Source of the DNA: an uncultured Chloroflexia bacterium
GTDB taxonomy: Bacteria; Chloroflexota; Limnocylindria; Limnocylindrales; CSP1-4
Assembly: GCA_963734535.1 (NCBI GenBank)
Contig: CAVTHS010000004.1
Location: 128,001 to 192,000 of the forward strand
Reading direction: 5' to 3'
Length of the DNA stretch: 64,000 nt
Below, piece after piece: positions 3,356 through 49,849 of this stretch. Position 1 is the first letter of the stretch. Every line of letters starts with the position of its first letter. The position numbers and the translations under genes are program-made. The notes under the pieces were generated by a model that was not told the origin of the DNA, made no database searches, and worked only from the letters and a program-made list of their open reading frames with translations.

Positions 3356-3493
3356 GGGTCCCCCCCTTGACGCTTCATCCAACGGCCGTCGTGGAAGATC
3401 GGAGGGTAGCCCGTGGCGCCGAGGCATGCAAGGCAGCGCGCCGAAGCAAGCTGACTCAGGCGGACTCCCGGTGGCCGCGTCGCAGCACCGGGA

Positions 3494-5440: not shown

Positions 5441-7015
5441 TCAGGACACCATCACGAGGATCCGGTGGTGCCCGCGTGCCCCGTCGGGGGCGGGATCGGA
5501 GCGCTGGTCCGTCTGGACGTCCCCGCTTCCGTCCGTGGCGCGGACCTCCAGGTTGTGCGCGCCGGGCGTGGCGGTCCAGGCCAGCGTCCACTGGACCCAG
5601 GTTGCCGTCGAGATCGGCCGGCTGATCCGGGCCGCCTGCCAGGACCCGTCGTCGATCTTCACCTCGACCGCGGTGATCCCGCGGTCGGGCGCCCAGGCGA
5701 CGCCCGCGATGGCAACCACGCCCGCCCGCACCGAGGCACCGTCGGCCGGCACGTCGATCCGTGACTGGGTCAGGATGGGCCCGTCCTTGGCCCAGCCGAG
5801 GGGCACCCAGTAGCCATCGACCGCCTCGCGGGTCGTGAGCTCGATCTCCGAGAGCCACTTGGTCGCCGAGACGTAGCCGTAGAGCCCGGGCACGATGAGG
5901 CGGGCCGGGAAGCCGTGGTTGGTCGGCAGCGGCTGGCGGTTCATGCCGACCGCGATCATCGGCTCCCGCCCGGGCGCCATCGCCCAGGCCGTCGGGAACC
6001 CCACCGTGAAGCCGTCGACCGAGCGCCCCACGATCTGGGTCGCGCCGGGAGCGACGCCTGCGCTCTCCAGCACGTCCTTGAGGCGCACCCCGGTCCACAG
6101 GGCGTTTCCCACCAGGTGGTCGCCGACCCGGTTGCTGACGCAGGCGATCGTGACGTACTGCTCGTAGAGGGGCATCGCGAGCAGCTCGTCGTAGGTGAAC
6201 GTGAGGGGATGCGCGACCATGCCTTTCACGTCCAGCTTCCAGGTGGCGGGGTCCACGCGCGGGACGAGCAGCGTCGTGTCGATCTTGTAGAAGTCGGCGT
6301 TCGGGATCACGAGCGGCGTGATGCCCGGGACCGCCAGCGCCTGGTCGGCCGCGAGCGGAGAAACCGCGAGGAACGGGGCCGGGATCTTCGAGGAGCTCAC
6401 GACCGCGTCGGCATGCTGCACGTCGATGAGCGACCGGCCCACCCCGCCCGCGACGATGACGCCACCGAGCGTGCCTGCGCTCGCGATCAGGAATCGGCGA
6501 CGGTTCCACTCGGGGCTCTCGAAGGCCGTGACCGGGTCGTCGGTGCCGCGCCGGGCGGCGGCGGCGCTCGCGAGCCCGAGCAGGCCCAGCAGCGTGACGA
6601 TGCCCGCGCTCACCGCGACGGCGGCATTGCCCACGGCGAGCGCCTGTGACGCGAGCGGGTCGCGGAGCGCGGCCGCGCCCGCGAGAAGCCCGACCGCCCC
6701 GAACGTGACCACCCCCAGCCAGCGCCGTCGCGCCGCGAGGATGCCGGCGAGGGCGGCGAGCACCAGCGCGACGACGACCACGGCGACGTTGAGGGCGACC
6801 TTGTCGTTGGTCCCGAACAGATTGACCACGAGGTCCTTGGCGCCGGGTGGCTGCAGGCTGATCACCAGCGACCCGATCGCCGCGACCAGGGAGGGCGCGC
6901 CCTGGACCAGGCCCGCGACAAGCTCGGACGCCGCGATCGCCACGCCCGCCGCGAGGGCCCCTGCGACGGCGCCGGGCCAGCGAAAGGAGAGGCGGCGCGC
7001 GTTCGGATTGCTCAT
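5441..7015 (-). CDS. Membrane-anchored molybdopterin oxidoreductase (sulfite oxidase / MsrP-like family) with C-terminal dimerisation domain
   Basis: N-terminal TM helices, internal twin-arginine-like RRRFL, FYKID, IACVSN (Mo-Cys), WTGVRLKDVL, HGFPARLIVPGLYGYVSATKW. Confidence 0.9.
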   Translation of the reverse strand: MSNPNARRLSFRWPGAVAGALAAGVAIAASELVAGLVQGAPSLVAAIGSLVISLQPPGAKDLVVNLFGTNDKVALNVAVVVVALVLAALAGILAARRRWLGVVTFGAVGLLAGAAALRDPLASQALAVGNAAVAVSAGIVTLLGLLGLASAAAARRGTDDPVTAFESPEWNRRRFLIASAGTLGGVIVAGGVGRSLIDVQHADAVVSSSKIPAPFLAVSPLAADQALAVPGITPLVIPNADFYKIDTTLLVPRVDPATWKLDVKGMVAHPLTFTYDELLAMPLYEQYVTIACVSNRVGDHLVGNALWTGVRLKDVLESAGVAPGATQIVGRSVDGFTVGFPTAWAMAPGREPMIAVGMNRQPLPTNHGFPARLIVPGLYGYVSATKWLSEIELTTREAVDGYWVPLGWAKDGPILTQSRIDVPADGASVRAGVVAIAGVAWAPDRGITAVEVKIDDGSWQAARISRPISTATWVQWTLAWTATPGAHNLEVRATDGSGDVQTDQRSDPAPDGARGHHRILVMVS

Positions 7016-7022
7016 GTCCGAC

Positions 7023-7114
7023 ACCGTATCCGCCGCGTGTTACCGGCCGATGACAGGACCTCGGGCTTCGTCGGGTGCGTCTGTCATCAGGCCGTCATCT
7101 ACCGGCCGCAGCCT
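7023..7114. promoter_or_regulatory. Divergent promoters with OmpR/PhoB-type 11-bp direct repeats
   Basis: Minus: GTCAT(7054-7050)-N6-GTAAC(7043-7039)-N10-TACGGT; plus: GTCAT(7083)-N6-GTCAT(7094)-N10-CAGCCT. Confidence 0.65.
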
Positions 7115-7152
7115 GTCGTGCACCCACACCTCAGCGACTGGAGAACGACAAC

Positions 7153-7686
7153 ATGGACTGGCATCCGACCTCACGACTTACTTCGCTTGCCGCCGCCGGG
7201 TTCGCCGTCGCCCTCGTTGCGGGAGCCTGTACGAGCGCCGGCGCAACCTCGTCGCCGAGCCCGGCGATGATCGAATCCAGCCCATCGCCGAGCGGGGCGA
7301 TGATGGAGGAGAGCCCATCGCCGAGCGGGGCGATGATGGAGGAGAGCCCATCGCCCGTCTCCATGGGGACGTTCCACGCCGTCGATGGCACGGCGACCGG
7401 GACCGCGGGCCTCTTCCACCGGCCCGACGGATCCTTCGTCGTAACCTTCGAGAGCTTCTCGATCGAGAGCGCGGCCAACATCAACGTCATCCTCGTCCCC
7501 AACAAGGACGTGAAAGCAGACGGCGACATCGACAAGGCGTCGATCGTCGACCTCGGGCCGCTCAAGGGGACGAGCGGGATGCAGGACTTCGCGGTCCCGG
7601 CTTCCGCCAACGCCATGACCTACCACGCCGTCGTGCTGTGGGACACGCAGATGGCCCACGCGATCGCCGCCGCGCCGCTGCAGTAG
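7153..7686 (+). CDS. DM13-domain lipoprotein with Met-rich Ser/Pro linker
   Basis: GGAG RBS, lipobox LVAGAC, GTFHAVDG..ATGTA, VDLGPLKGTSGMQDF..YHAVVLWD resemble DM13. Confidence 0.75.
   Translation: MDWHPTSRLTSLAAAGFAVALVAGACTSAGATSSPSPAMIESSPSPSGAMMEESPSPSGAMMEESPSPVSMGTFHAVDGTATGTAGLFHRPDGSFVVTFESFSIESAANINVILVPNKDVKADGDIDKASIVDLGPLKGTSGMQDFAVPASANAMTYHAVVLWDTQMAHAIAAAPLQ
7249..7356 (+). repeat. 33-bp coding tandem repeat (SPSPSGAMMEE)
   Basis: Two exact copies of agcccatcgccgagcggggcgatgatggaggag (7279, 7312) with degenerate flanking copies. Confidence 0.85.
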
Positions 7687-7859
7687 GTCCCCGACGCTGA
7701 CCCCGGTCGCCTCGCGATCGTCAGACAGCTCGTGGAGTCGGCAGGCGGCCTCGTCGGCGCCGAGTCCGGCGAAGGCCTGACCGGTCCTGGATCAGCCTGC
7801 CCGGCTGAAATGACACCGCCCCGGAACGGCGCGTCCGGGCCCAGGAGCATCCGGCCGGC

Positions 7860-7891
7860 GTCATCAGGTCGTCATTCGGCGCGCCGAAGAT
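7860..7891 (+). promoter_or_regulatory. OmpR/PhoB-type direct repeat and -10 of leaderless dipZ promoter
   Basis: GTCAT(7860)-N6-GTCAT(7871)-N10-GAAGAT-N6-GTG start. Confidence 0.6.
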
Positions 7892-7897
7892 GTCCCC

Positions 7898-9220
7898 GTG
7901 CTCCTCCTCCTTGTCGGTGCCTTCATCGCCGGGATCGTCACCATCCTTGCCCCCTGCATCGCGCCGGTGGTCCCCCTCGTGCTGGGGGCGGCATCCACCG
8001 GCGGGCGGAGACGGTCCCTCGGTATCCTCTCGGGGTTCGGCCTCGCATTCCTCGCGGTCACGGTCATCCTTGCGTCGGCCCTCGCCGCGACGGGCCTGAC
8101 CACCGATCGCCTTCGGATGGCCAGCGCCGTCTTCCTTGGCCTCGTCGGGTTGACGGTCGCCCTGCCGGGCATCGGATCCCACCTGGGCGAGCGCCTCGCG
8201 CCGCTCGCGAACCTGGCCGACCGCGCGGCGCGCCGACGGCCTGGGGACGGCCTGGCCGGAGGCCTCGTGCTCGGCGGCGCGATCGGAGTCATCTGGGCAC
8301 CGTGTGCGGGCCCGATCATGGCCGGCGTGATCGCCGCAGCGGCCGTTCGCGGTCCCGGCCTGGACACGCTGCTCATCGCGAACGCCTACGTCGCCGGGGT
8401 GGCGCTCCCTCTCACGCTCGTGGCACGCTGGGGCAGCCGGGCGGGGGACGTGGCGAGCGGCGTCGCGCGGGATGGGCGCCTGCGTCGAGTGTTCGGTGTC
8501 TTGATGCTGGCGAGCGCCCTCCTCGTTCTCACCGGCCAGGACGTCGTGGTCGAAGGCAGCCTGGCAGCGTTCCTCCCTGCTGGACTGAGCAGCGCGCTGG
8601 CGCGAGTCGAGGCACAGCCGGAGGTCCAGCGGGAGCTCAACTTGCTCCGAGCCGGTTCGGCGGCGACGGGGGGACCGGGGGGCGCTCCACGTGCCTCGGC
8701 CCCGGGCCCGGGCGGCGCGGCCACCACACTGCCGGCGCCGATCGCGCAGCCCCTGCCCGGGCGCGTCGAGCTCGAAGACCTCGGTCCGGCGCCGGACTTC
8801 ACCGGCATCGAGGCCTGGATCAATTCCACCCCGCTGACGCTGCTCTCGCTGCATGGCAAGGTGGTGCTCGTCGAGTTCTGGACGTTCGCCTGCATCAACT
8901 GCGTCCACGTCCAGCCGTCCATCACGGCCTGGCACGATCGCTATTCGTCCGCCGGCCTTGTCGTGGTTGGCGTCCACACACCCGAGCTGTCGTTCGAGCG
9001 CGAGCTCGGCAACGTGCGCGAGGCGGTCACCAGGGCCGGCATCGATTACCCGATCGCGGTGGATCCCGCGTTCGCGACCTGGAATGCCTACCGGAACAGC
9101 TACTGGCCCGCCATGTACTTCATCGATCGATCCGGCCGCATCCGGCACGCCCACTTCGGCGAGGGCGACTACGACGGCTCCGAGCAGGTGATCCGCGAGT
9201 TGCTTGTCGAACCGTCGTGA
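7898..9220 (+). CDS. dipZ: CcdA/DsbD-thioredoxin fusion (DipZ-like)
   Basis: APCIAPVVP and WAPCAGP Cys motifs in TM domain; C-terminal redoxin FWTFACINC, GVHTPE, YWPAMYFID, HFGEGDY. Confidence 0.88.
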   Translation: MLLLLVGAFIAGIVTILAPCIAPVVPLVLGAASTGGRRRSLGILSGFGLAFLAVTVILASALAATGLTTDRLRMASAVFLGLVGLTVALPGIGSHLGERLAPLANLADRAARRRPGDGLAGGLVLGGAIGVIWAPCAGPIMAGVIAAAAVRGPGLDTLLIANAYVAGVALPLTLVARWGSRAGDVASGVARDGRLRRVFGVLMLASALLVLTGQDVVVEGSLAAFLPAGLSSALARVEAQPEVQRELNLLRAGSAATGGPGGAPRASAPGPGGAATTLPAPIAQPLPGRVELEDLGPAPDFTGIEAWINSTPLTLLSLHGKVVLVEFWTFACINCVHVQPSITAWHDRYSSAGLVVVGVHTPELSFERELGNVREAVTRAGIDYPIAVDPAFATWNAYRNSYWPAMYFIDRSGRIRHAHFGEGDYDGSEQVIRELLVEPS

Positions 9221-9294
9221 CCGTCCGGACATGCTGGCACGCTCCGATTCCAATCCCGACGACTGCACGATTCGCGCCGGTACCGAGGCGCGTG

Positions 9295-10101
9295 TCACGC
9301 GGCCGCGACGTCGCGCCGGGCGACGCTCATGACGCCGATTCCCGCGAGGACGAGGGAGGGGATGGCGAGCGCCAGGTAGCGCCAGGCCCCCGTCGTGTGC
9401 TCGAGCGGGTCGCCTCCGAACGCCCAGTCCCAGGGCGAGAGATGCTGCCATGGGGCCAGCACGGTGCTGAGCGGGAACAGGGCGACGACGAGGAACCCGG
9501 TCAACGCCACTGCGAGGCCGATGCCCATGACCAGGGACGGCCGGCCCCACAGGCCGGCGATGGCGAGCGCCAGGCTGCCGTGGAACACCGCGAGCAAGGC
9601 ACACAGCGCGATCGTGGAGAGCAGGTAGCTCGACTCCATCTGCAGGCCGACGGCCGCATCCGCCCCGACCTGGACCCCGGTGATCACGGCAGTGATCACC
9701 GCGAGGGCCACCAGCGTGGCGATCGCTCGGCCGAGGAAGACCATCCGGCGATCGACCGGCTGGGCGAGGTAGAGCTCGAGGCGGCCACCTGACTCCTCAC
9801 CCGCCGTCTGGCCGTTCACGAGTATCACGGCCGCGGCGGCGAGCAGCAGCGGCAGGAAGAAGTCGTAGAGGTTGCCGCGCAGGAAGCCCGCGGGGGTGCC
9901 GAAGTCCTCGAGCCCGAATGCTTGCACGACACCCGCCGGGAGCTGGTCGATCGCCGCGGAGATGCCCGACGAGCCCTGGAATGCCGGCCAGAAGGCGACC
10001 GTGATGCCGACGATGCTGGCGAGCCCGACCGACCACCAGAACGTCGCTCGCCGCATGGCTCGCAGGGGCCCCATGACGAGCTCCCGCAGCGGGGCGCTCA
10101 T
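9295..10101 (-). CDS. ABC-2 type transporter permease
   Basis: Multiple TM helices, GEESGGRLELYLAQPVDR motif, C-terminal RRDV; ATGA overlap with ATPase. Confidence 0.88.
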   Translation of the reverse strand: MSAPLRELVMGPLRAMRRATFWWSVGLASIVGITVAFWPAFQGSSGISAAIDQLPAGVVQAFGLEDFGTPAGFLRGNLYDFFLPLLLAAAAVILVNGQTAGEESGGRLELYLAQPVDRRMVFLGRAIATLVALAVITAVITGVQVGADAAVGLQMESSYLLSTIALCALLAVFHGSLALAIAGLWGRPSLVMGIGLAVALTGFLVVALFPLSTVLAPWQHLSPWDWAFGGDPLEHTTGAWRYLALAIPSLVLAGIGVMSVARRDVAAA

Positions 10102-10997
10102 GCGGCACCCGCGTACAGGTCGAGGAAGGCCTCCTCGAGATCCGGCTCCTCGACGAGCATGGAGCTGACGTGGCAGTGGGCGAGCAGGTCGAGGAGCGGC
10201 TGGATCGACCCCGAGAGGGTGGCAGTGAACCGGTGGCCGTCGATGATCGGGTCGACGACGCCGGACAGCGAGCGGAGCTCGGCCGCAGGCGCCTCGTCCT
10301 CGAACCAGACCTCGATCCGCTGGCGTGCGCGCCCCCGCAGCTCGGCCACCGAACCCTCCGCCACGACCTTGCCCGCCCGCAGGACGGCCACGCGGTCGGC
10401 CGCCCGCTGGACCTCGGAGAGGACGTGAGAGGAGAGGAAGACGGTCGCCCCGGCGGCGCGGGCCTCGCGGACGAGGACCAGGAACTCGTGCTGGATCAAC
10501 GGGTCGAGACCGCTCGTGGGCTCGTCGAGGACGAGAAGCTCGGCGTCAGCGAGGAAGGCGAGGAGCAAGGCGACCTTGCGCCGGTTGCCGCTCGAGAGGT
10601 CGCGCAGCGGACGGTGCAGGTCCAGCTTGAGGCGCTCAGCGAGCCCGTCGCGCCGGGCTGCATCGAAGCCGCCCCGCAGCCGCCCGATGCTCGCGACGAG
10701 CTCCATGCCGGACAGCCGCTCGGGAAGCCGCAGCTCGCCCGGCAGGTAGGCGAGCCGGCGGCGCAGGGCTACCCCGTCGCGCGTCGAATCCAGCCCGAAG
10801 GCGCCGATCCGGCCGGCAGTCGGCCGCAGCAGACCGAGCAGACAGCGGATGGTCGTACTCTTGCCCGCGCCGTTCGGCCCGAGGAAGCCATAGACCTCGC
10901 CCCGGCGCACCTCGAGGTCGATCCCGCGCACGGCCTCGACCTTCCCGTAGTGCTTGACGAGGCCGTCGATCCTGACGACAACGTCGGTCTCGCTCAT
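10098..10997 (-). CDS. ABC transporter ATP-binding protein
   Basis: Walker A GPNGAGKST, LSSGN, LVLDEPTSGLDP, SSH. Confidence 0.93.
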   Translation of the reverse strand: MSETDVVVRIDGLVKHYGKVEAVRGIDLEVRRGEVYGFLGPNGAGKSTTIRCLLGLLRPTAGRIGAFGLDSTRDGVALRRRLAYLPGELRLPERLSGMELVASIGRLRGGFDAARRDGLAERLKLDLHRPLRDLSSGNRRKVALLLAFLADAELLVLDEPTSGLDPLIQHEFLVLVREARAAGATVFLSSHVLSEVQRAADRVAVLRAGKVVAEGSVAELRGRARQRIEVWFEDEAPAAELRSLSGVVDPIIDGHRFTATLSGSIQPLLDLLAHCHVSSMLVEEPDLEEAFLDLYAGAA

Positions 10998-13024
10998 CCC
11001 TCGACCTCCCCAGCTGCGATCTCGCTCCCGAGGAGCGCCTCGAGCGGCTCGCGGGCCCCGGGGGCGCAGAAGACCGTCAGGCGATCGCCCGCCCGGAGCG
11101 TGACGTCCCCGCGGGGCACGATGACCCGATCGCCGCGCAGGATCGAGACGAGCACGCTGTCCCTTGGCCAGGCCGCCTCCTCGACCATCCTTCCGGCGAG
11201 GACCGACGAAGGCGCGACCTCGGATTCGAGGAGCGTCCCGGTGGACCCCACTGCCCGCACCTGGCGCACGTTGGCGGCGAGGGCGCGGCGATAGGCACCC
11301 ACCACGTCGCGCGCCGAGATGGTCCCCGCCAGCCGGTCGCCGGCCACGACGGGAGCCCATGAGCGGTGCGCGTCGGCGAGGAGCCCGAGGACGTCGTCGA
11401 GCGGATCGTCGGCCTCGACGATCGGGCCGTCCGGGCCGAGCTCCCCGACCGCAACGGCCGGGTCCGCCGCGACGAGGCTCGCGAGGTCGAGGCTGCCACG
11501 CACGGTGCCGTCCCGGTCGACGACGGGGGCGCCGGGCACGCCCGCGGCCTCGAGGCGTGCGCGCCCGACCCCGGCCATCTCGTCGGCGCGCAACACGGCG
11601 CGCGGGGCCCGCGTCGCGTCGCTGGCCGGGATCGCCCCCATCAGGGGCAGCGCGAACCGGAACCGGTGCGCCGACGACTCGGCCCGGCTGCGGAGCTGCG
11701 AGGTGTAGATCGAGCGGTCGCCGACGATGAGCGTGGCGAGGCCGATCGCGAGCATCGCCGGACCGAGCATCGCGAGGCTGTCGGTCATCTCGGCGACCAT
11801 GAGCATCACCGCCAGCGGCGCATGGGCGATGCTCCCGAAGAGCGCCATCATCGCCACGATCACGAAGGTCGACGGATCGACCGGGACGCCCGGGGCGATC
11901 GGCTCGAGGAGGCGCCAGATCCCGGCGCCGAGGAGGCCGCCGATGACCATCCCGGGGCCGAAGATCCCGCCCGACCCGCCGGAGCCGACCGAGAGCGAGG
12001 TCGCCAGGATCTTGGCGAACGGGAGGACGAGGACCACCCACAGCGGGAGGCCGAGCAGCGTCGTCCGATCCAGCCCGGCCTGGACCCAGCCGTAGCCGGT
12101 GCCGAGCGCGCCGGGGAGGGCGATCCCGATGCACCCGACGCCGAACCCCGCGATCGCCGGCCGCAGCTCGCGTGGGATCGACCAACCCGCGAACCAGCGG
12201 GTCAGGCCGTAGAAGCCGCCGATGTAGAGCCGGCCCACGAGCCCCGCGGCGACGCCGATCAGCGCGTAGTAGGCGAGCTGGCGCGGATCGGTGAACCCGG
12301 CGCCGGCAACGCGGCCGAAGATCGGAGCGAAGCCGACGAGCGCCCCGAAGATCGAGAACGCGACGATCGACGCGACGAAGGCCGGCACGAGAGCCTCGGA
12401 CTCGACGTCCTCGCGATACGGGATCTCGGCGGCGAGAACCGCACCGCCGAGCGGGGCGCGGAAGATCGCGCCGATCCCGGCGCCCATGCCGCTGCTGACC
12501 GCGATTCGCGCATCGCGGGCGTCGAGGTCGAGGACGCGGGCGAGGAACGACCCGAACCCGGCCCCGATCTGGGCCGTCGGGCCCTCGCGGCCACCCGAGC
12601 CGCCCGATCCGATCGTGATGGCCGAGGCGACGAGCTTGACGAGCGGGATCCGCGCGCGGATCCGGCGTGCCCCGTGGTGGAAGGCTGCGATCGCGGCGTC
12701 CGTGCCGTGGCCCTCGGCCTCGGGCGCGAGGCGGAACACGATGATCCCCGAGAGGAGACCGCCGAGCCCGACGACGAACGGAAGCGCCCACGGCCGGGCG
12801 GCGTCCGTGATCGGCTGCGCGCCCTCCCCGAGCGGCGAGGCCGGCACGAGCCCCGCGAGCGTGCCGAGGAAGAACCGGGTCCCGGCCTCGAGCGCGAGGA
12901 AGAAGAGCGCGGCCCCGAGGCCGCTGATGACCCCGATGACCGCCCCGAGCACGACCCACTTGCGGAGGTACGCAGCCGAGCGAACCTGACGCCGGAGTCT
13001 CCGCAGGAGGAGGGCGCCGCTCAC
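10994..13024 (-). CDS. ClC chloride channel/antiporter with CBS and TrkA-C domains
   Basis: GHGT, GREGP (gating Glu), GGSGGIFGP motifs; CBS pair; IVPRGDVTLRAGDRL TrkA-C; GTGA overlap with MarR stop. Confidence 0.9.
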   Translation of the reverse strand: MSGALLLRRLRRQVRSAAYLRKWVVLGAVIGVISGLGAALFFLALEAGTRFFLGTLAGLVPASPLGEGAQPITDAARPWALPFVVGLGGLLSGIIVFRLAPEAEGHGTDAAIAAFHHGARRIRARIPLVKLVASAITIGSGGSGGREGPTAQIGAGFGSFLARVLDLDARDARIAVSSGMGAGIGAIFRAPLGGAVLAAEIPYREDVESEALVPAFVASIVAFSIFGALVGFAPIFGRVAGAGFTDPRQLAYYALIGVAAGLVGRLYIGGFYGLTRWFAGWSIPRELRPAIAGFGVGCIGIALPGALGTGYGWVQAGLDRTTLLGLPLWVVLVLPFAKILATSLSVGSGGSGGIFGPGMVIGGLLGAGIWRLLEPIAPGVPVDPSTFVIVAMMALFGSIAHAPLAVMLMVAEMTDSLAMLGPAMLAIGLATLIVGDRSIYTSQLRSRAESSAHRFRFALPLMGAIPASDATRAPRAVLRADEMAGVGRARLEAAGVPGAPVVDRDGTVRGSLDLASLVAADPAVAVGELGPDGPIVEADDPLDDVLGLLADAHRSWAPVVAGDRLAGTISARDVVGAYRRALAANVRQVRAVGSTGTLLESEVAPSSVLAGRMVEEAAWPRDSVLVSILRGDRVIVPRGDVTLRAGDRLTVFCAPGAREPLEALLGSEIAAGEVEG

Positions 13025-13447
13025 CGGAACGGCTCGAACGATCGGGCCAGCCTGGCGATTGCCCCGACCTCGGCCGGCGTCATCGGCCCCGCTCCGATCA
13101 CCGCGGCGAGGTCGCGCCGGCGGTGGTCGAGCACCTGCGTGCGCATCGCCTGGCCGGCCTCGGTCAGGCCGACCCGTGTGACGCGGCCGTCGGTGGCGTC
13201 CCGTGCCGTCCACACGACGCCGCGACGCTTCAGGCGCGACACGAGCCGGCTTGCCGGCGACTCGTTCGCCCCGATCCGCGATGCGATCTCTCCGACGGTC
13301 GCGCCGCCCGGGATGCTCACCGACGATGAGCAGCACGCGCCACTGCACGAACGTCAGGTCGGCACCCGCCGCGGCGATCGCCCGCTCGGTCATCGCCACC
13401 GCGCCCACGACGAGGCGCTCGAGCAGGTCGATCGGCAGTTCGGGCAC
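13021..13447 (-). CDS. MarR-family regulator (frameshift near 13310)
   Basis: LTFVQWRVLLIV in one frame, then TVGEIASRIG..ASRLVSRLKRRG..DGRVTRVGLTEAG in another. Confidence 0.8.
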
Positions 13448-13464
13448 GTCCTCATCATATCCCA

Positions 13465-13488
13465 GATAGGTTCCATGTGGAACCTATC
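13465..13488. promoter_or_regulatory. Perfect palindromic operator, probable MarR site
   Basis: GATAGGTTCCA-tg-TGGAACCTATC just upstream of the -10 TATGAT (13459-13454) of marR. Confidence 0.7.
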
Positions 13489-13769
13489 CACTCCCCACAC
13501 GATCGACACCGCCGCCGCGGCACGCGTGGGGAGTGGGATCGCGATCTCGATCAGCAGGAACGCCGCACCGATCGGGCCGAAGGCGACGAGATCGCACACG
13601 ACTGCTGTGGTCGAATCTCGCGTTTCATGGGCCGAGGACCACTTCGCCCGACGGTCCGCCGTCAAGGTAGACTCCCCGCCTGAAGCACCGGGTTGAGCGG
13701 CCGGGTTCCGTGTCGCCACCGGGGCATGGACGTGCCAGGCCGGACGCGACCTGGCTGGGGGGTTGCCCG

Positions 13770-14030
13770 ATGAGCGGATCTGACCAGGACCACATGGGCT
13801 CGTTCGCGGACGGCGAGCGGACCACCCCGCATGCTGCTGCCGACGACGCGCCGGGCCACTTCAGCGAGGGACAGGAGACCGCCCACGCGGAGCATCTCCG
13901 GATGGGGTCGTTTGCCGACACCTCATGCGCGGGGTGCGTCGCGATCGAGAGCGCGCACGCCGAGCACGTCCGAAAGGGCACCTTCGCCGACACCAGCTGC
14001 CCGAAGTGCCAGGTGATGCCCGCGGGGTAG
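13770..14030 (+). CDS. Small His/Cys-rich repeat protein (86 aa)
   Basis: Internal repeats GSFAD/GHFSE/GSFAD/GTFAD and AHAEHxRxGxFADTSCxxC x2; G-rich RBS; TAGACT -10 at 13668. Confidence 0.65.
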   Translation: MSGSDQDHMGSFADGERTTPHAAADDAPGHFSEGQETAHAEHLRMGSFADTSCAGCVAIESAHAEHVRKGTFADTSCPKCQVMPAG

Positions 14031-14063
14031 GCCGCCAGCAGGTTGATCCAGATGTCGGGGCGG

Positions 14064-15134
14064 TCACCCCGGGAGACTGAACCACACGCGCGTCACGCCG
14101 TCGGCTGACTCCGCCCCGACCCTGCCGCCGTGGCCTTCCACGAGCTGCTTCACGATCGACAGGCCGATGCCGGCGCCACCCCGTTCCCGGTCCCGCGACT
14201 TCTCGACGCGGTAGAACCGCTCGAAGACATGCGGCAGGGCGTCGGCAGGGATGCCATCCCCACTCGTCGTAACGGAGACGAGGATGTCGGCCGGCCGCCG
14301 CTCCGCCCGGATGCCGACCTGCCCTCCGGGCGTGCTGTACCGAACGGCGTTCTGGAGCAGGTTGCCCAGGACCTGCGCAAGCTGGTCGGGGTTGCCGCGG
14401 GCCGGCAGCCGCGCCGGCACCGCAAGGGTGATCTCGAGCCCGGACGCTCGAGCCGCCGGCAGGACGAGCTCGACGGCGGAGCGGATTGCGATCGCGAGGT
14501 CCACGTCGACCGGCGCCGGCGGTCCGGCAGCGTCCCCGTCGGCCAGGGTGTCGAGCCCCCGGGAGAGGCGGACGAGGCGCTCCGTCTCCTCCCAGAGCGA
14601 CTCGAACGTGGCCCGATCAGGTGGGATGACCCCATCCCGCAGGGCCTCGAGATATCCCTTGAGGTTGGTCAGCGGGGTCCGGAGCTCGTGGGCCGCGTTC
14701 GCGATGAACTCGCGGCGCATGCGCTCCTGCTCCTCGAGTGAGGCCGCCATCTGGTTGAACGAGTCGGCCAGGCTGAGGATCTCCTCGGGCCCCCGCCGAT
14801 CGATGCGCGACTCGTAGCGGCCCTCGGCGATCCTGCGCGCCGCTGCCCCGATCTCCCGCAGGGGCCGGACCAGGCGGGCGGCGATCACCGCGGCGAGCGC
14901 GATCGCGGCCACCACCGCGACGGACGCAGCGACCAGAACCACCTGGACCACCGAGCTCTGGAACATCGCGTCGCTCGATGCCGTGCTGATGCCGTGGCTC
15001 GCCATCAGGGCCGCGAACGACTGCGAGCCGACCACGATCACGCCGGCGGCCAGGATGAGCAGGGCAACCCCGGCGACGAGGATCGCCGCCGCTGCGATGC
15101 GCAGCGCGACCCCGCCGCGTATCCGTCGGCTCAC
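14064..15134 (-). CDS. Sensor histidine kinase (HAMP-HisKA-HATPase)
   Basis: Two TM helices, HAMP, AHELRTPL, NLLQNAVRY, FERFYR, GAGIGLSI; GTGA overlap with regulator. Confidence 0.93.
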   Translation of the reverse strand: MSRRIRGGVALRIAAAAILVAGVALLILAAGVIVVGSQSFAALMASHGISTASSDAMFQSSVVQVVLVAASVAVVAAIALAAVIAARLVRPLREIGAAARRIAEGRYESRIDRRGPEEILSLADSFNQMAASLEEQERMRREFIANAAHELRTPLTNLKGYLEALRDGVIPPDRATFESLWEETERLVRLSRGLDTLADGDAAGPPAPVDVDLAIAIRSAVELVLPAARASGLEITLAVPARLPARGNPDQLAQVLGNLLQNAVRYSTPGGQVGIRAERRPADILVSVTTSGDGIPADALPHVFERFYRVEKSRDRERGGAGIGLSIVKQLVEGHGGRVGAESADGVTRVWFSLPG

Positions 15135-15856
15135 GGTTCGGGCGCGGACGGCGCCGCCCGGTACCCGACGCCGCGCACCGTCGCGACATAGCGGGGGCGG
15201 TTGGGATCGTCGCCCAGCTTCTGGCGGAGCCGCCGAACGTGCACGTCGATCGTGCGGTCCAGGACCTCCGAGTCTCCGTGTCCGTAGACCGCGTCGAGCA
15301 GCTGGTCGCGGGTGAGAACCCGGCCGCCGGCGGCGAGCACTGCTGTGAGCAGGCGGAACTCGACGGCCGTCAGCGCGACCGGCCGCCCGGCGACAGTCAC
15401 CTCGTGGCGATCGGGGTCGACGACAAGGTCGCCGAGCCGCAGCGGCTCCGATGGCGGGCTCGACCCCACCTCCGATCCCGCCCGCCCCGTGCGCTCGAGA
15501 ATCCGCCGGACCCGGAGCACGAGCTCGGCGGGCGAGAATGGCTTTGGCAGGTAGTCGTCGGCGCCCTCGGTGAGCCCGGCGATGCGATCGGCGGTGGTCC
15601 CCCGGGCGGAGAGGACCAGGATCGGGGTCGGGTCCGTGCGGCGGACCGCCCGGATCACCGCCAGGCCATCGATCTCGGGCAGCATGAGATCGAGAACCAC
15701 GAGCGCAGGCGCCTCGAGGGCAATGGCTGCGAGTGCGCTCCGCCCGTCGGCTGCCTCGACCACGCGGAGTCCCTCGCGTTCGAGGTACGTCCGCACGAGG
15801 CGGACGATCTTCGGATCGTCGTCGACGACGAGGATGGGTGCCGGGCCAGTCGTCAC
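15131..15856 (-). CDS. OmpR/PhoB-family response regulator
   Basis: VVDDD, LDLMLP, GADDYLPKPF, recognition helix DRTIDVHVRRLRQKL, TVRGVGY. Confidence 0.95.
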   Translation of the reverse strand: MTTGPAPILVVDDDPKIVRLVRTYLEREGLRVVEAADGRSALAAIALEAPALVVLDLMLPEIDGLAVIRAVRRTDPTPILVLSARGTTADRIAGLTEGADDYLPKPFSPAELVLRVRRILERTGRAGSEVGSSPPSEPLRLGDLVVDPDRHEVTVAGRPVALTAVEFRLLTAVLAAGGRVLTRDQLLDAVYGHGDSEVLDRTIDVHVRRLRQKLGDDPNRPRYVATVRGVGYRAAPSAPEP

Positions 15857-15956
15857 GCGGCCATCCTATGTCAGACAGTGGGGCTCGCAACCGGGCATCG
15901 ACAGCCGGAAGCGGCGGCCGGCGCCGCCGCTTCCCAGCCGACGTGGATCGGGTTGG

Positions 15957-17054
15957 CTACGAAGCCGCCAGGCCGCCCGAGCCGGACGGCAGCCCGGGGG
16001 TGCTTCCGGTCGAGGTCAGGCTGCCGCCCGGACCGATCCGGAACGAATCGATCGCGCCGGCCCCAACGTCGACGACGTAGAGGAAGCGCCCATCACCGCT
16101 CACCGATGCGTCGAGGAGCGGCGCTGTGGACGAACCGCCCGCGGTGGCGTTGACCAGCGTGAGGCTGCCATCGGCGGCGATGGCATAGGAGGAGATCCGG
16201 GCAGGGCTGTGGGCGTCGATCGTGAACGCATAGCGACCGTCTGGTGTGAGGGTCACCCAGCAGGCCGCCTGCTGACCGTTGGCGATCGAGGCCGAGATCA
16301 CGCTCGGCACGCCTCCGCGCGAGACCGCGTAGGAGGACAGCGCACTGCCGGCCGCCTCGGTGACGAACAGCCGGCCGCGACCGTCGAAGGCGAAGCCGTA
16401 CGGGGCAGCGCCTGCCGAGGCATGAACGCTCGGGGGACCGGCGATCCCGAAGAAGCCGACGCGGTAGGTGACGAGCTCACCGGCGCCCTTCTCGGTGACC
16501 ACGAGCACGCGGCCGTCGGGTCCGAAGGCGATCTGCTCGGGCGAGGTCCCCGCTCCGCTCAGCGGCTGGATCGAACCGGGGAGCGCAACGAGGTGCCGGC
16601 CGATCCGGGCGAAGCCTGCGATGTTGCCGCTGCCCCCGGCGTCGAGCACGTACAGGATGGGACCGTGGAGCGTGACGCTGATCGGGCTGGTGCCCCCGGA
16701 TGCAATGCTGTCGGCGAGGTGCAGGTCGCCCTTTGGCCCGACGGCGAAGAGCGCCACGTCATTGCTGCCGGCATCGACGGCGGCCAGCCACCGACCATCG
16801 GCGCTGAGCGTCACCGCGCCCTGGGAGCCGAGACCGACGCCCGTGCCCAGGCCGCCGGTCGGGAAGGTTCCGCGCAGGCTGAGGCTGCCATCAGCCATTC
16901 GCGCATAGGCCAGGACGGCATTGCCGGCCGCCGAGTTGGTCATCGTGTAGACGGTTTCGCCGCCATCGAAGTCGTGCGCGGCAACCGTCACGGGAACGCT
17001 GAAGGACAGTAGGGCGGCAAGGAGTCCGAGTCCTGCCATCAACCTGCGACGCAT
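15957..17054 (-). CDS. Secreted beta-propeller, lactonase (6-phosphogluconolactonase-like) family
   Basis: GGAG RBS, signal peptide, VYTMTN..GNAV, LGSQGA, repeated xDGRxL blades, AACW. Confidence 0.85.
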   Translation of the reverse strand: MRRRLMAGLGLLAALLSFSVPVTVAAHDFDGGETVYTMTNSAAGNAVLAYARMADGSLSLRGTFPTGGLGTGVGLGSQGAVTLSADGRWLAAVDAGSNDVALFAVGPKGDLHLADSIASGGTSPISVTLHGPILYVLDAGGSGNIAGFARIGRHLVALPGSIQPLSGAGTSPEQIAFGPDGRVLVVTEKGAGELVTYRVGFFGIAGPPSVHASAGAAPYGFAFDGRGRLFVTEAAGSALSSYAVSRGGVPSVISASIANGQQAACWVTLTPDGRYAFTIDAHSPARISSYAIAADGSLTLVNATAGGSSTAPLLDASVSGDGRFLYVVDVGAGAIDSFRIGPGGSLTSTGSTPGLPSGSGGLAAS

Positions 17055-17104
17055 ACGGCGAAATCTCCTCGAGTCTGCCCGGAGACGCCTCCGGGTCGGC
17101 CCCG

Positions 17105-17158
17105 AGCGTGTTCCATCGGGATGACGTCGGAATGACGGCCTCGTGTCGGATCGATGAC
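17105..17158 (-). promoter_or_regulatory. Four-unit 11-bp-period OmpR/PhoB-type box array plus -10
   Basis: Plus-strand ATGAC at 17121, 17132, 17154 and GTGTC at 17143; minus-strand CACGCT at 17110-17105. Confidence 0.7.
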
Positions 17159-17215
17159 GACTGCGCGAGCTGTCGACGACTGCAAGCCGCGCGATGAGTG
17201 CGTCGTGCGACGCAT

Positions 17216-17247
17216 GGTCGCTCGCGGTCGCTCGCGGTCGCTCGCGG
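17216..17247. repeat. 10-bp tandem repeat (GGTCGCTCGC x3)
   Basis: Three exact consecutive copies in intergenic DNA. Confidence 0.75.
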
Positions 17248-17423
17248 CCGCCCGCGGCAAGGGATGCAGCGTCGGCCTCGGCGATCAGCGGGTCGCGTGA
17301 TCCGTATGACCACGCGGCGCCGGCGACCTCGTTGGCGCGGATCTCCGGCCCAACCATCGCGCACGAATTGGCGGGTCCAAACGGGAACTTTCCTCCACAG
17401 GGACTGCCCGTCATCATCGTTCG

Positions 17424-18740
17424 GTGAGTCAGGCAATCCCGGCGATCGACCGACTCCTCGCTCCATTCCGCGAGTTCACCAGCAGCAGCGCCGCAAGCGG
17501 GATCCTGCTGATGGCCGCGGCCGTCATCGCGCTGCTCTGGGCCAACTCGCCACTCGCCTTCTCCTACGTCGCGCTCTGGGACACGCATCTCACGATCGGC
17601 GTCGGCGACGCGGTGCTATCGAAGACCCTCGGACATTGGATCAACGACGGCCTGATGGCGGTCTTCTTCTTCGTCGTCGGTCTCGAGATCAAGCGCGAAG
17701 TCCTCGTCGGCGAGCTCGGGTCGGTTCGCCGCGCAGCACTCCCGATCGCGGCTGCGCTTGGTGGGGCGCTCGTGCCCGCGCTCGTCTTCCTTCTCATCGC
17801 CGGGTCCGGCGAGGGCGCTCGCGGCTGGGCCATCCCGATGGCGACCGACATCGCATTCGCCCTCGGGGTGCTCGCCCTGCTCGGCGATCGTATCCCGATC
17901 GGCCTTCGCGTCTTCATGGCTGCCCTGGCCATCGTCGACGATCTGCTGGCAGTCGTGATCATCGGCCTCTTCTACACGTCCGACGTCTCCGTCACCGCGC
18001 TCGCCGCGGCGGGAGGTTGTCTCGCAGCGCTCGCCGCAGCGAACGTGCTCGGGGTCCGCCGGCCGGCCGTCTACGGCGTGCTCGGGCTCGCGCTCTGGCT
18101 GGCGATCCTCCAGTCGGGCGTGCACGCGACGATCGCGGGTGTGCTCCTCGCCTTGACGATCCCGGCTCGAACCAGGCTCGACAGCGCCGACTTCGCGGCT
18201 CGTGCCCGACGGATCGTGGATCACCTGGTTCGGCGCGAGAACAGCGACGAGCCGGCAACCATGGAAGAGCACCACGACGCCCTCTGGGACCTGGAGACGA
18301 TCACCGAGCGTGCCCAGGCGCCGATGCTCCGATTCGAGCATGCGCTCCAGCCCTGGGTGGCCTTCGTCGTCGTCCCGATCTTCGCGCTGGCCAATGCGGG
18401 CGTCGCGTTGGGCGGCAGCGTCGGGACGATGCTCGGCGATCCTGTCGTCCTGGGTGTCGCGATCGGTCTGATCGCGGGCAAGCAGGTCGGCATCACGACG
18501 GCGACCCTGCTGGTCGTGCGAGCTGGTCTCGCATCGCTGCCTTCAGGCGTGACCATGAAGCACATCTATGGTGCGGCCTGGCTTGGCGGCATCGGCTTCA
18601 CGATGAGCCTGTTCATCAGCGACCTGGCCTTTGGCGGCGGGCCGATCCTCGCGCTCGCGAAGGTCGGGATCCTGGTCGCATCGGTCGTCGCCGGCGTGGG
18701 CGGTTACCTGATCCTGCGGTACGCGACCCGGGTCCGCTAG
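17424..18740 (+). CDS. nhaA: Na+/H+ antiporter NhaA
   Basis: WINDGLMAVFFFVVGLEIKRE, GWAIPMATDIAF, LAIVDD, SGVHATIAG, PIFALANAG, GIGFTMSLFI. Confidence 0.96.
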   Translation: MSQAIPAIDRLLAPFREFTSSSAASGILLMAAAVIALLWANSPLAFSYVALWDTHLTIGVGDAVLSKTLGHWINDGLMAVFFFVVGLEIKREVLVGELGSVRRAALPIAAALGGALVPALVFLLIAGSGEGARGWAIPMATDIAFALGVLALLGDRIPIGLRVFMAALAIVDDLLAVVIIGLFYTSDVSVTALAAAGGCLAALAAANVLGVRRPAVYGVLGLALWLAILQSGVHATIAGVLLALTIPARTRLDSADFAARARRIVDHLVRRENSDEPATMEEHHDALWDLETITERAQAPMLRFEHALQPWVAFVVVPIFALANAGVALGGSVGTMLGDPVVLGVAIGLIAGKQVGITTATLLVVRAGLASLPSGVTMKHIYGAAWLGGIGFTMSLFISDLAFGGGPILALAKVGILVASVVAGVGGYLILRYATRVR

Positions 18741-25707: not shown

Positions 25708-26610
25708 GACAGGAGTCCCTCGGCGCTGAGGAGCGCCTTCAAGGCCTGGACCTGTCCCGAGTCGAGCGGAAGCAACGGTCGTCGCGGGATGCCGCCCCGG
25801 AAGCCTGCCAGCGTCATCGCTGCCTTGACGCCCGCCACCCCATGGGTCCCCGAGATCGCCGCGTTGATGCGGCTGACTCGATCCTGGAGCGGGACCCCAT
25901 TCGGCTCGTCGCGGGCACGTCCGTAGCTCGAACAGCTGCAGGGCGAGCTGCGGGAACGAGTTGGCGAGCGAGACCGTGCCGCCGGGCGAGCCGCCCAGCA
26001 TGGCCCGGAACAGGAAGTTGGCCGAGCCCGCCAGCACGTGGAACGAGGGGCCCTGGAAGGGAAGGAAGGCTTCGATGCCACTCGACGCGCTGTCCTTGAG
26101 GCCCACGATGTTTTCGTGGGCTGCGAGGCGTCCAACCAGGTCAGGGCTCAGCGTGACACCGCAGAAGCCCGGCGCGTTGTAGAGGAGAAGCGGGACCCGC
26201 GCGTCGTCCGCCAGGGACGAGAAGAAGCGGTAGAGGACCTCGTCGGTCATCTGCGCCCGGAAGTAGCCCGGCGACAACACGAGCCCGAAATCGGCCCCGA
26301 TATCTGCCGCAGCTGCCAGGAAGCGCTCCGCTTCACGCTGGCCGTCGTACGCGGCCCCGGCGAGGACCACCTGCGCAGGCCCCTTGTGCCCGACGACGGT
26401 CTCGAGCACACGCAGCTTCTCGCCCTCCGCCAGGCTCCGGTTCTCTCCGTTGGACCCAAGCGCGAGATAGCCGAGGATCCCGCTCTGTGCATAGCGCGCG
26501 AGGTTGAACCGGAGGGCGTCGTAGTCCACGTCCTCGTTCGGCGCGAAGGGCGTGCTGATCGGCGCGAATACGCCGGCGAGCCTGGACTGGACATCACGTC
26601 CGGCCATCAC
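25704..26610 (-). CDS. DHDPS/NAL-family aldolase, HOGA-like (frameshift near 25930)
   Basis: TPF, GSNGE, LYNAP, IVGLKDS (Schiff-base Lys); C-terminus GVKAAM..PRRPLLPL in another frame. Confidence 0.85.
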
Positions 26611-27429: not shown

Positions 27430-27661
27430 GGTACGGTGTGCGCACTCATTATAGCGGCCGTTCAAGCCCGGGGTGGGTAGTCCGCGCAACTCCTGGAATG
27501 CCTCGGGCCGGTGCGTACATGAGCTTGCCGTCGTGCGGTATGTCGGCAGCCCACAGGACCCCATAGGCCTTTCAGTCGATTCCCCGCCGGGGCCGGCGTG
27601 TGCACACTGCAGACAGGGCCACGGTCCATCCCACGGCAGGTTCTGGCGTGGTGTTGAGCCC

Positions 27662-49800: not shown

Positions 49801-49849
49801 GATCCGGGAGGCGGAGGTGGCCTCCGCGCTCCGGCCCGCCGGGACGTGA
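40873..49849 (+). CDS. ndvB: Cyclic beta-1,2-glucan synthase (GT84 + glucoamylase-like + GH94), frameshift near 48140
   Basis: [81 protein letters not shown]. Confidence 0.93.

Follow-up and report, generated by a model that had tools for sequence, protein, structure and literature searches.

Four promoters with a shared Pho-box-like architecture suggest a candidate envelope redox regulon in an uncultured Chloroflexia bacterium

The proposal, made from the letters alone, that four promoters of an uncultured Chloroflexia soil bacterium share one spacing architecture raises the questions whether this architecture exceeds chance, which regulator might read it and what the genes behind it have in common. 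Within the window, i.e., the whole stretch of 64,000 nt analyzed here, the full pattern GTCAT-N6-GT(C/A)A(T/C)-N10-nAnnnT occurs four times, at the positions given by this sequence-only reading and exclusively at the promoters of the Mo-oxidoreductase, DM13, DipZ, and lactonase genes (Table 1); the 53,304 bases of coding DNA contain no match. In the whole window, GTCAT-N6-GTMAY is found four times versus 0.22 expected (0/100 shuffles reach four), exact GTCAT-N6-GTCAT three times versus 0.05 (0/300 reach three), and GTCAY-N6-GTCAY three times versus 0.42 (4/300 reach three). Allowing one mismatch in the box over the same DNA yields neither an extra site nor enrichment (3 versus 1.85 expected; 27/100 shuffles reach 3). 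The comparison with shuffled intergenic DNA that the earlier reading had suggested was carried out on 31 segments (11,149 nt) from the analysis' own gene list, with a GC content of 0.717, not below that of the whole window. Here, four occurrences of the two-unit pattern are observed versus 0.112 expected, and four of the full pattern including the hexamer versus 0.002; in neither case does any of 1000 shuffles reach four.

Table 1. Genes and promoter elements of the locus, in window positions
Feature	Position	Strand	Description
Mo-oxidoreductase	5441..7015	-	Membrane-anchored sulfite-oxidase-family molybdoenzyme; Oxidored_molyb and Big_7 domains
Mo-oxidoreductase two-unit box	7023..7054	-	GTCAT-N6-GTAAC-N10-TACGGT; GTCAT 7054-7050, GTAAC 7043-7039, TACGGT 7028-7023
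DM13 two-unit box	7083..7114	+	GTCAT-N6-GTCAT-N10-CAGCCT; units 7083, 7094; CAGCCT 7109-7114
Met-rich lipoprotein	7153..7686	+	SPSPSGAMMEE repeats; C-terminal DM13 domain (PF10517)
dipZ two-unit box	7860..7891	+	GTCAT-N6-GTCAT-N10-GAAGAT; units 7860, 7871; GAAGAT 7886-7891
DipZ-type fusion	7898..9220	+	CcdA/DsbD membrane domain and thioredoxin-like domain; DsbD_TM, Redoxin, AhpC-TSA
Histidine kinase	14064..15134	-	Two membrane helices, outer loop of ~25 aa, HAMP, HisKA, HATPase
OmpR/PhoB-family response regulator	15131..15856	-	241 aa; Response_reg and Trans_reg_C domains
Lactonase-family protein	15957..17054	-	Secreted 7-bladed beta-propeller, 365 aa, signal peptide; first gene of operon
Short hairpin CCCGG...CCGGG	17078..17095	-	Predicted 5' leader of lactonase operon, before GGAGA ribosome-binding site
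-10-like hexamer CACGCT	17105..17110	-	Exactly 10 nt past proximal lactonase unit
Four-unit direct-repeat array	17115..17158	-	11-bp period, upstream of lactonase-regulator-kinase operon; GTCAT 17158, GACAC 17147 (one mismatch), GTCAT 17136, GTCAT 17125

Since the pattern had been defined from the same four window sites, an independent test required a matrix made from relatives only. The weight matrix comprises 60 units taken from the lactonase promoters of 15 related Candidatus Limnocylindrales loci; the window and one further locus (L012) were excluded. The G-T-C-A-Y core carries 1.0-2.3 bits and the spacers at most 0.3 bits, and the base ahead of the core is mostly C. The scan, a matrix search including relatives having likewise been suggested beforehand, recovers the window sites: those at 7083 (plus strand, 21.2 bits) and 7860 (plus strand, 19.1 bits) rank first and second, the lactonase array scores 18.4 and 17.5 bits, and the Mo-oxidoreductase site (7054, minus strand) is the weakest of the four with 12.6 bits and rank 8, its geometry being exact.

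The shared box architecture is not random, and relatives have conserved it. A four-unit array lies ahead of the lactonase gene in 16/16 related loci having upstream DNA and is in register in 15 of them, the sixteenth, L012, having a 1-nt deletion in a spacer; nAnnnT is located at equal distance in all 15 in-register loci and is also present in L012. Across the 16 loci the direct repeats, at their 11-bp period, have conserved cores and variable spacers. Many of these loci are close kin, and their counts are therefore not independent. Strong two-unit boxes also occur before the Mo-oxidoreductase gene in L008, L009, and L012, before the lipoprotein-DipZ genes in L011, and directly before the regulator start codon in one locus, L014; the Mo-oxidoreductase copy of L011 is without a box. 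The link that had been drawn between the redox genes and the lactonase-regulator-kinase run is strengthened by gene order, as the Mo-oxidoreductase gene adjoins this run in L008, L009, L011, and L012, and the DipZ gene in L001 and L011, several of these genes being boxed there.

A second constant feature is the distance to the presumed -10 element. The nAnnnT hexamer, with a background frequency of 0.0217, is found exactly 10 nt downstream in 7/7 sites of at least 18 bits outside lactonase arrays (window 7083 and 7860; L008 7925; L009 6166; L011 8240; L012 8174; L014 6683), six of which are independent, L009 and L012 being near-identical. Weaker sites outside the arrays have it in 1/15 cases, the window Mo-oxidoreductase site only. 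At a threshold of 8 bits, the loci contain 160 sites, of which 24 have the hexamer; lactonase, Mo-oxidoreductase, DipZ, and regulator promoters account for 21 of these 24. Altogether, N10 followed by nAnnnT is present at 4/4 window sites, 16/16 related lactonase promoters, and 5/5 other strong sites. No sigma-70-type -35/-10 pair was found in the boxed promoter regions, which fits the earlier claim that the boxes stand in for the -35; the GTCAYN hexamer, as read from the sequence, is separated from the -10 by 9 or 20 nt, whereas a -35 would be expected at 16-18 nt. Direct repeats about one helical turn apart with conserved cores, and a fixed -10 spacing without a -35, are both hallmarks of a Pho-box-like promoter. 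Structural models cited in PMC9934606 support a strict spacing of the pho box relative to the core promoter elements at PhoB-activated promoters. With the transcription starts predicted from this geometry, leaderless mRNAs are possible for the Mo-oxidoreductase gene, whose ATG (7015) lies 7 nt past the hexamer, and for dipZ, whose GTG start (7898) lies 6 nt past it; the DipZ N-terminus aligns with the ATG starts of the L001 and L011 DipZ proteins. In the leader of the lactonase operon, five predicted pairs, two with compensatory changes, hint at conservation of the hairpin.

The regulator encoded in the run belongs to the OmpR/PhoB family, with matches to PF00072 (1.1e-28) and PF00486 (2e-25) and full-length matches to many solved members. 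As had been claimed, its recognition helix is close to that of PhoB: in the alignment, DRTIDVHVRRLRQKL differs from the E. coli PhoB helix DRTVDVHIRRLRKAL by conservative changes only, and the helix is kept in 9/10 orthologues. Taken as a whole, the DNA-binding domain most resembles those of MtrA, WalR/VicR, and RegX3, and the protein scores below every NCBIfam equivalog cut-off. Identity with PhoB proper is rejected (TIGR02154, 199 versus 296.2; NF007546, 153 versus 471; NF053854, 166 versus 270), and so is identity with MtrA (NF040689, 209.7 versus 300). The kinase gene, whose GTG start overlaps the stop codon of the regulator gene, encodes neither a PhoR (models 185 versus 334 and 134 versus 390; no PAS domain in the domain search) nor an MtrB (145.5 versus a cut-off of 450). 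Two methionines in its outer loop, M44 and M57, are invariant in 8/8 orthologues. Downstream DNA is available for 14 loci, and in 10 of them the regulator-kinase pair comes after the lactonase gene.

Taken together, the GTCAY units at 11 bp are likely to constitute the operator of an OmpR/PhoB-type regulator, the best candidate being that encoded at 15131-15856, and to serve as a -35-replacing activator site of a small, autoregulated envelope redox or oxidative-damage regulon. It is linkage and helix similarity that point to this protein. Phosphorylated regulator dimers would bind head-to-tail to pairs of units, and the proximal pair, ending exactly 10 nt upstream of a weak -10 hexamer (YAnnnT), would replace the -35, with RNA polymerase being recruited as at pho-box promoters. 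Two unit pairs at the lactonase-regulator-kinase operon imply strong, cooperative positive autoregulation, if they are used in this way; the genes for the DM13 lipoprotein, DipZ, and the Mo-oxidoreductase have one pair each. On the whole, the earlier interpretation is supported.

What the boxed genes encode bears on the role of such a regulon. The first gene of the operon encodes a lactonase-type propeller, as judged from Pfam (PF10282, 59 bits versus a cut-off of 21.7) and from the predicted fold: the AlphaFold model (pLDDT 84) resembles 1ri6, 6nau, and 6igb (TM 0.72-0.75), the best fold matches, 16-18% identical, being 6-phosphogluconolactonases and the periplasmic gluconolactonase PpgL. Against the 6-phosphogluconolactonase equivalogs it reaches only ~28 bits, versus cut-offs of 370-500. 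The molybdoenzyme has a twin-arginine-like RRRFL segment inside the chain and an Ig-like domain at its C-terminus. Its closest solved relatives are the SorA sulfite dehydrogenases (E ~1e-25), whereas YedY/MsrP (1xdq) matches at 7e-5, and MsrP identity is rejected (NF003767, 40.5 versus 207 bits). The gene for the Met-rich lipoprotein is divergent from that for the molybdoenzyme, and both are boxed; in L001, the lipoprotein at the equivalent position before DipZ consists of six SPSPSGMMEA repeats.

The strongest competing explanation, albeit an unlikely one, accepts the boxes as real and assigns them to another PhoB-like regulator encoded elsewhere, either a true phosphate regulator or a paralogue, with the local operon as its target. 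A recognition helix nearly identical to that of PhoB makes specificity less than unique, so that any PhoB-like paralogue might read the same box, and the thousands of regulators 70-80% identical in metagenomes render close paralogues plausible. Moreover, the array is kept in 4/14 loci (L001, L002, L013, and L015) although a search within 10 kb (E <= 1e-5) finds homologues of neither regulator nor kinase, and in L004 a perfect array is retained next to regulator and kinase genes broken by several frameshifts; between L004 and L005 the regulator-kinase region is 88.7% identical with 50 gap positions, versus 94.6% for the lactonase region. This explanation is opposed by the linkage of the regulator in the other ten loci and by the dedicated box of L014, a box directly before a regulator's own gene being the usual mark of autoregulation. 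It is further opposed by PhoB and PhoR models under their cut-offs and by targets that include no phosphate gene, the phosphoesterase gene at 1592-3427 having no site among the top matrix matches of the window. A true Pho system is itself rejected, given the PhoB score, the kinase without PAS, and the nature of the targets.

There is only a slim chance that the local regulator binds the boxes as a repressor, or that they pair with the promoter of another sigma factor instead of replacing a -35. The boxes do overlap the polymerase-binding region and, according to PMC9934606, PhoB activates or represses depending on the position of its site, which would allow either sign. However, there is no detectable -35/-10 pair to occlude, the position of GTCAYN does not match that of a -35, and the hexamer keeps its distance of 10 nt in 23 promoters (16 lactonase promoters of relatives, four in the window, and three further independent ones), which is the geometry of an activator. 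Finally, the pattern has almost no prospect of having arisen by chance or as a by-product of composition in AT-richer intergenic DNA: it was defined after the sites had been seen and is not enriched in its one-mismatch version, but this reading is already contradicted by the relatives-only matrix, the fixed hexamer geometry, the intergenic shuffles, an intergenic GC content that is not lowered, and conserved cores between varying spacers across 16 loci.

Compared with known systems, the proposed activator regulon shares with PhoB-PhoR and the pho box of E. coli the 11-bp-period direct repeats around a (T)GTCA-type core, the tandem arrangement of boxes at the strongest promoter, a fixed distance to the -10 without a -35, the recognition helix apart from conservative changes, and, presumably, autoregulation of the regulator-kinase operon. 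PhoB reads a TGTCA-type unit, whereas here the base preceding the core is mostly C, not T. Several other differences exist: regulator and kinase fall short of the cut-offs for PhoB and PhoR, a PAS domain is missing from the kinase, pst and phoU genes are absent nearby, and the boxed targets are redox proteins rather than phosphate-acquisition genes. Actinobacterial MtrA, which binds GTCAC-type direct repeats, ranks first or second among the regulator's matches in the PDB and NCBIfam. The MtrAB operon carries a gene for a secreted accessory protein, and the gene for the lipoprotein LpqB follows mtrAB; here, gene order and partner differ, a lactonase-type propeller gene coming first, the regulator remains below the MtrA cut-off, and the MtrA recognition helix is less similar to the local one than that of PhoB.

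The HprSR system of E. coli (YedVW, HypVW), in which the HprR box is an inverted repeat, is associated with hiuH-msrP-msrQ; it is likewise a two-component system beside a gene for an extracytoplasmic sulfite-oxidase-superfamily molybdoenzyme, which it controls, as the local pair would control its own. Met residues in the periplasmic loop of the HprSR kinase are described as important for activity, and a Met redox switch has been proposed (10.1101/2021.09.09.459708); the short outer loop of the local kinase has its two invariant Met. In contrast to HprSR, the molybdoenzyme is nearer SorA than MsrP, an MsrQ-like haem protein is absent, the regulator reaches 136 bits versus an HprR cut-off of 353, and the host belongs to the Chloroflexota instead of the proteobacteria. 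The SigF/NrsF-MrpX-YedY1 hypochlorite response of Azospira suillum, as presented in PMC4436054, is a small stress regulon combining a Met-rich secreted protein with a molybdoenzyme, a combination mirrored by the divergent, boxed lipoprotein and molybdoenzyme genes. It differs in employing a sigma/anti-sigma pair rather than a two-component system; in addition, the window protein joins its Met-rich segment to a DM13 domain, and methionine sulfoxide reductase activity is not assignable to the local molybdoenzyme.

Given four boxed promoters and the same design in related genomes, a small set of secreted redox proteins is probably under the positive control of the local two-component system. The boxed products are extracytoplasmic redox proteins, and neighbors of the regulon genes in relatives encode MsrB, a peroxiredoxin-like protein, a DsbA-like thioredoxin, and CcdA. 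The regulon would thus most likely answer oxidative, thiol, or methionine damage at the envelope, or metal stress there, with such stress as the candidate signal.

Four promoters of the window share a box, GTCAT-N6-GT(C/A)A(T/C), followed by ten nucleotides and a -10-like hexamer, nAnnnT; they precede the genes for a sulfite-oxidase-family Mo-oxidoreductase (molybdoenzyme), a DM13 lipoprotein, DipZ and a secreted lactonase-type propeller. On re-reading of the window, all four boxes lie exactly where the sequence-only reading had placed them, and its expectation that the motif is commoner than chance is borne out by shuffling. Across whole-window shuffles, GTCAT-N6-GTMAY occurs four times against 0.22 expected, the exact repeat GTCAT-N6-GTCAT three times against 0.05 (three or more in 0 of 300 shuffles) and GTMAY-N6-GTMAY four times against 0.54 (0 of 300). 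Allowing one mismatch in the window added no site and gave no enrichment (3 observed, 1.85 expected). Genes were called from third-position GC content and Pfam, at a window GC of about 70-72%, and the intergenic set obtained by our own gene classification comprises 11,149 nt with a GC fraction of 0.717, which is not below that of the window. When only these intergenic bases are shuffled, the box is expected 0.112 times and the full architecture, with N10 and nAnnnT, 0.002 times; each is observed four times, a count reached in 0 of 1000 shuffles. Neither has a match within the 53,304 coding bases of the window.

Genes and boxes of the window, and strong boxes (at least 18 bits, outside lactonase arrays) in the window and in lactonase-bearing loci of related genomes
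Feature	Locus	Position	Strand
Membrane-anchored sulfite-oxidase-family molybdoenzyme	window	5441-7015	-
Box of molybdoenzyme gene	window	7054	-
Strong box, DM13 gene	window	7083	+
Lipoprotein, Met-rich repeats and DM13 domain	window	7153-7686	+
Strong box, dipZ	window	7860	+
DipZ-type CcdA-thioredoxin fusion	window	7898-9220	+
ABC-2 exporter pair	window	about 9295-11000	-
CLC channel	window	10994-13447	-
Histidine kinase	window	14064-15134	-
OmpR-family regulator	window	15131-15856	-
Secreted lactonase-type propeller	window	15957-17054	-
Lactonase array	window	17115-17158	-
NhaA	window	17424-18740	+
IclR-family regulator, divergent, flanking palindrome	window	26607-27377	-
GGDEF gene flanking palindrome	window	27473-28984	+
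Strong box	L008	7925	
Strong box	L009	6166	
Strong box	L011	8240	
Strong box	L012	8174	
Strong box	L014	6683	

The stop codon of the regulator gene is overlapped by the GTG start of the kinase gene. Between the lactonase and NhaA genes (17208-17250), a 10-nt unit, GTCGCTCGCG, is present in three tandem copies and a fourth, degenerate one. Elsewhere in the window, a 2495-aa open reading frame with GH94 supersandwich and glucoamylase domains (40873-49849) is overlapped in another frame by a 577-aa one with a GH94 catalytic domain; the two may represent a frameshift-split cyclic glucan synthase or phosphorylase gene. Near the end of the window, an ECF-type sigma factor with a DUF6596 extension adjoins a gene whose product has a LigD primase-polymerase domain (60650-62722, minus strand, and 62882-63940, plus strand).

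The box is conserved in relatives, the nearest of which are MAGs labelled Candidatus Limnocylindrales or uncultured Chloroflexia. An alignment of 28 lactonase homologues, used for a profile search of genome contigs, yielded 18 loci (L001-L018), 17 of them from Chloroflexota; L018 is a weak, irrelevant match. For sixteen loci the DNA upstream of the lactonase gene is available; in 15 of these a four-unit GTCAY array of 11-bp period occupies the same register, matches at 18-20 of 20 core positions and is followed after exactly 10 nt by CACGCT, CACCCT, GACGCT, CACCTT or CAGGCT. The remaining one, L012, has the same four-unit array but a 1-nt deletion in one spacer. A weight matrix was built from the 60 units of the 15 loci, with the window and L012 excluded; its G, T, C, A and Y positions carry 1.02, 2.32, 1.08, 2.21 and 1.16 bits, and the spacers at most 0.30 bits. 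Applied to the window, this relatives-only matrix upheld the sequence-only claim of a shared box best for the DM13 and dipZ sites, which rank first and second (21.2 and 19.1 bits) and are followed by the lactonase array (18.4 and 17.5 bits); at 12.6 bits the Mo-oxidoreductase site reached only rank 8, near a few coding-region matches. The motif is very probably a genuine conserved operator. Clusters of Mo-oxidoreductase and lactonase genes, with or without regulator and kinase, occur as paralogous pairs, two per genome, in L011 and L012 (same contig, about 95 kb apart) and again in L008 and L009 (one MAG).

The spacing to the hexamer is fixed. All seven strong sites outside lactonase arrays carry nAnnnT exactly 10 nt downstream of their second unit, at a background frequency of 0.0217 for this hexamer at a random position of the window and all loci; six of the seven are independent, because L009 and L012 are near-identical. 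Among 15 weaker sites outside arrays (12.5-16 bits), the hexamer accompanies one, that of the window's Mo-oxidoreductase. At a threshold of 8 bits it is found at 24 of 160 sites in the loci; 21 of these belong to promoters of lactonase, Mo-oxidoreductase, DipZ or regulator genes, and the other three are roughly the chance expectation. A candidate fifth site in the window, upstream of the GGDEF gene (27401, plus strand; 11.7 bits, CACGGT at N10), was rejected because its second unit sits in a near-perfect palindrome, GTTTCACCTAGTGAAC (27401-27432), next to the IclR gene; the palindrome is probably an IclR operator.

A simple scan of 6950-7950 and 17000-17450 found no sigma-70-type -35/-10 pair. 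A role of the units as the -35 element of an alternative sigma factor was rejected, since the interval from unit to hexamer would then measure 9 or 20 nt. Direct reading of the sequence places the ends of the predicted hexamers 7 nt before the molybdoenzyme ATG (7015) and 6 nt before the dipZ GTG (7898), so that both mRNAs would be leaderless. For the DM13 and lactonase genes, the leaders measure about 30-45 nt and contain GGAG-type ribosome-binding sites. The predicted lactonase leader contains a GC hairpin, CCCGG...CCGGG (17078-17095, minus strand), between the -10 element and a GGAGA ribosome-binding site. It is kept in the equivalent leaders of L001-L017, with weak covariation (two of five pairs with compensatory changes, covariation term -0.35), and is not a terminator because it lacks a T-run. 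The centres of the divergent Mo-oxidoreductase and DM13 boxes (7039-7098) are 44 bp, or four 11-bp periods, apart, and dimers bound to them would occupy the same helix face.

The genes behind the boxes recur in relatives, as surveyed by tblastn with window proteins and by Pfam searches of 54 of the 140 candidate open reading frames of the loci, namely those flanking the operon without prior tblastn identification. In L008, L009, L011 and L012 the gene immediately upstream of the lactonase gene encodes the molybdoenzyme, and in L001 and L011 DipZ adjoins the lactonase gene. Strong non-lactonase boxes stand before the molybdoenzyme gene in three loci (L009, L012 and, as a multi-unit array, L008), before a small lipoprotein gene with dipZ behind it in L011, and before the regulator gene itself in L014, where TAGATT is followed 6 nt on by the ATG. 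In L001, a degenerate box picked by eye and below the matrix threshold (GTTAT-N6-GTCAC-N10-TAGGGT) likewise precedes a lipoprotein gene and then dipZ. This lipoprotein (about 11500-11720) consists of six SPSPSGMMEA repeats and has no DM13 domain; its window counterpart ahead of dipZ carries two copies of the Met-rich SPSPSGAMMEE (7250-7350). A tblastn search of the 18 loci for DM13 homologues returned no DM13 domain, only the Met-rich N-terminal repeats in L001. Among further neighbours, MsrB is encoded immediately behind the lactonase gene in L002. L011 has genes for AhpC/TSA and DinB-like proteins and, past the kinase gene, for CcdA and a thioredoxin of DsbA-like type. A cation-efflux protein is encoded in L013 and L014; no remnant of L014's post-kinase cation-efflux gene was found in the window.

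Which protein reads the boxes is suggested by linkage and by the recognition helix. Regulator and kinase genes follow the lactonase gene in eight loci (L003, L005, L006, L007, L011, L012, L014 and L017); L008, where the contig ends, retains the receiver domain of the regulator, and L004 has both genes in frameshifted form, giving linkage of the regulator in 10 of 14 informative loci. The other four (L001, L002, L013, L015) keep the array, but homologues of regulator and kinase are both lacking within 10 kb. The broken pair of L004 (11139-12917) shows several frameshifts, 88.7% identity to L005 and 50 gap positions, beside an intact lactonase gene and four-unit array (94.6% identity); either gene decay or a local assembly error would account for it. 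The regulator falls below every NCBIfam equivalog cut-off, scoring for example 217 bits against RpaB (cut-off 330), 210 against MtrA (300), 199 against PhoB (296) and 195 against CseB (350), and a reading as a Pho regulon was rejected on model cut-offs and target genes. Taken whole, its DNA-binding domain most resembles those of MtrA, WalR/VicR and RegX3; the recognition helix and its flank are closest to AdeR and PhoB. The resemblance to PhoB's helix proposed from sequence is confirmed (DRTIDVHVRRLRQKL versus DRTVDVHIRRLRKAL in PhoB), and the helix is retained in nine of ten orthologues, the exception being the broken L004 copy. PhoB reads TGTCA-type direct repeats of 11-bp period that replace the -35 element. 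Structural models support strict spacing from the pho box to core promoter elements (PMC9934606). The proposed link between regulator and box is thus a well-supported inference, and the local regulator is likely to be the protein that reads the boxes.

The most likely role appears to be a response to oxidative, thiol or metal stress at the envelope, at an even chance or somewhat better. In the kinase, a loop of about 25 residues, with M44 and M57 invariant, separates two membrane helices, and a Pfam search detected no PAS domain. SorA sulfite dehydrogenase, rather than MsrP, is the nearer relative of the molybdoenzyme, whose membrane anchor is free of haem and whose sequence includes an internal RRRFL segment. 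The confidently modelled propeller (pLDDT 84) shares 16-18% identity with the proteins it resembles, 6-phosphogluconolactonases and the periplasmic gluconolactonase PpgL. By analogy, HprSR-MsrPQ and SigF-MrpX-YedY1 follow a similar logic. Methionines in the periplasmic loop of the HprSR (HypVW) kinase are important for activity and a methionine redox switch has been proposed (10.1101/2021.09.09.459708). In SigF-MrpX-YedY1, hypochlorite is scavenged by a Met-rich protein that a molybdoenzyme presumably regenerates (PMC4436054). In membership tests, the window molybdoenzyme did not fall within MsrP, nor the regulator within HprR. The system is conceivably, though improbably, a convergent Chloroflexota counterpart, built from unrelated parts, of these proteobacterial hypochlorite and copper defences. 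The kinase, with its minimal outer loop, would then sense oxidants via the two invariant methionines and switch on a Met-rich sacrificial lipoprotein, the membrane-anchored sulfite-oxidase-family enzyme that would restore it, DipZ as a putative electron conduit, and the secreted propeller, which might detoxify an oxidised envelope compound or act as the kinase's extracellular co-sensor.

The proposed mechanism is ordinary, textbook OmpR/PhoB-family activation with positive autoregulation; to this an uncultured lineage adds a new regulator, with a new operator and gene set. Literature searches found no paper linking Limnocylindria with two-component systems, none joining DM13 with DipZ and none on this regulator, operator or gene set; for DipZ, sulfite oxidase and regulon combined, nothing relevant was among the matches listed. 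Candidatus Limnocylindrales are abundant, uncultured Chloroflexota of soil and freshwater. The value of the finding lies in annotation and in a basis for experiments, not in a new principle: one sensory system of the Limnocylindrales gains a concrete, testable operator, promoter geometry and core regulon, and a single stress response would tie together a secreted, unassigned propeller, a DM13 protein and an unusual membrane-anchored molybdoenzyme.
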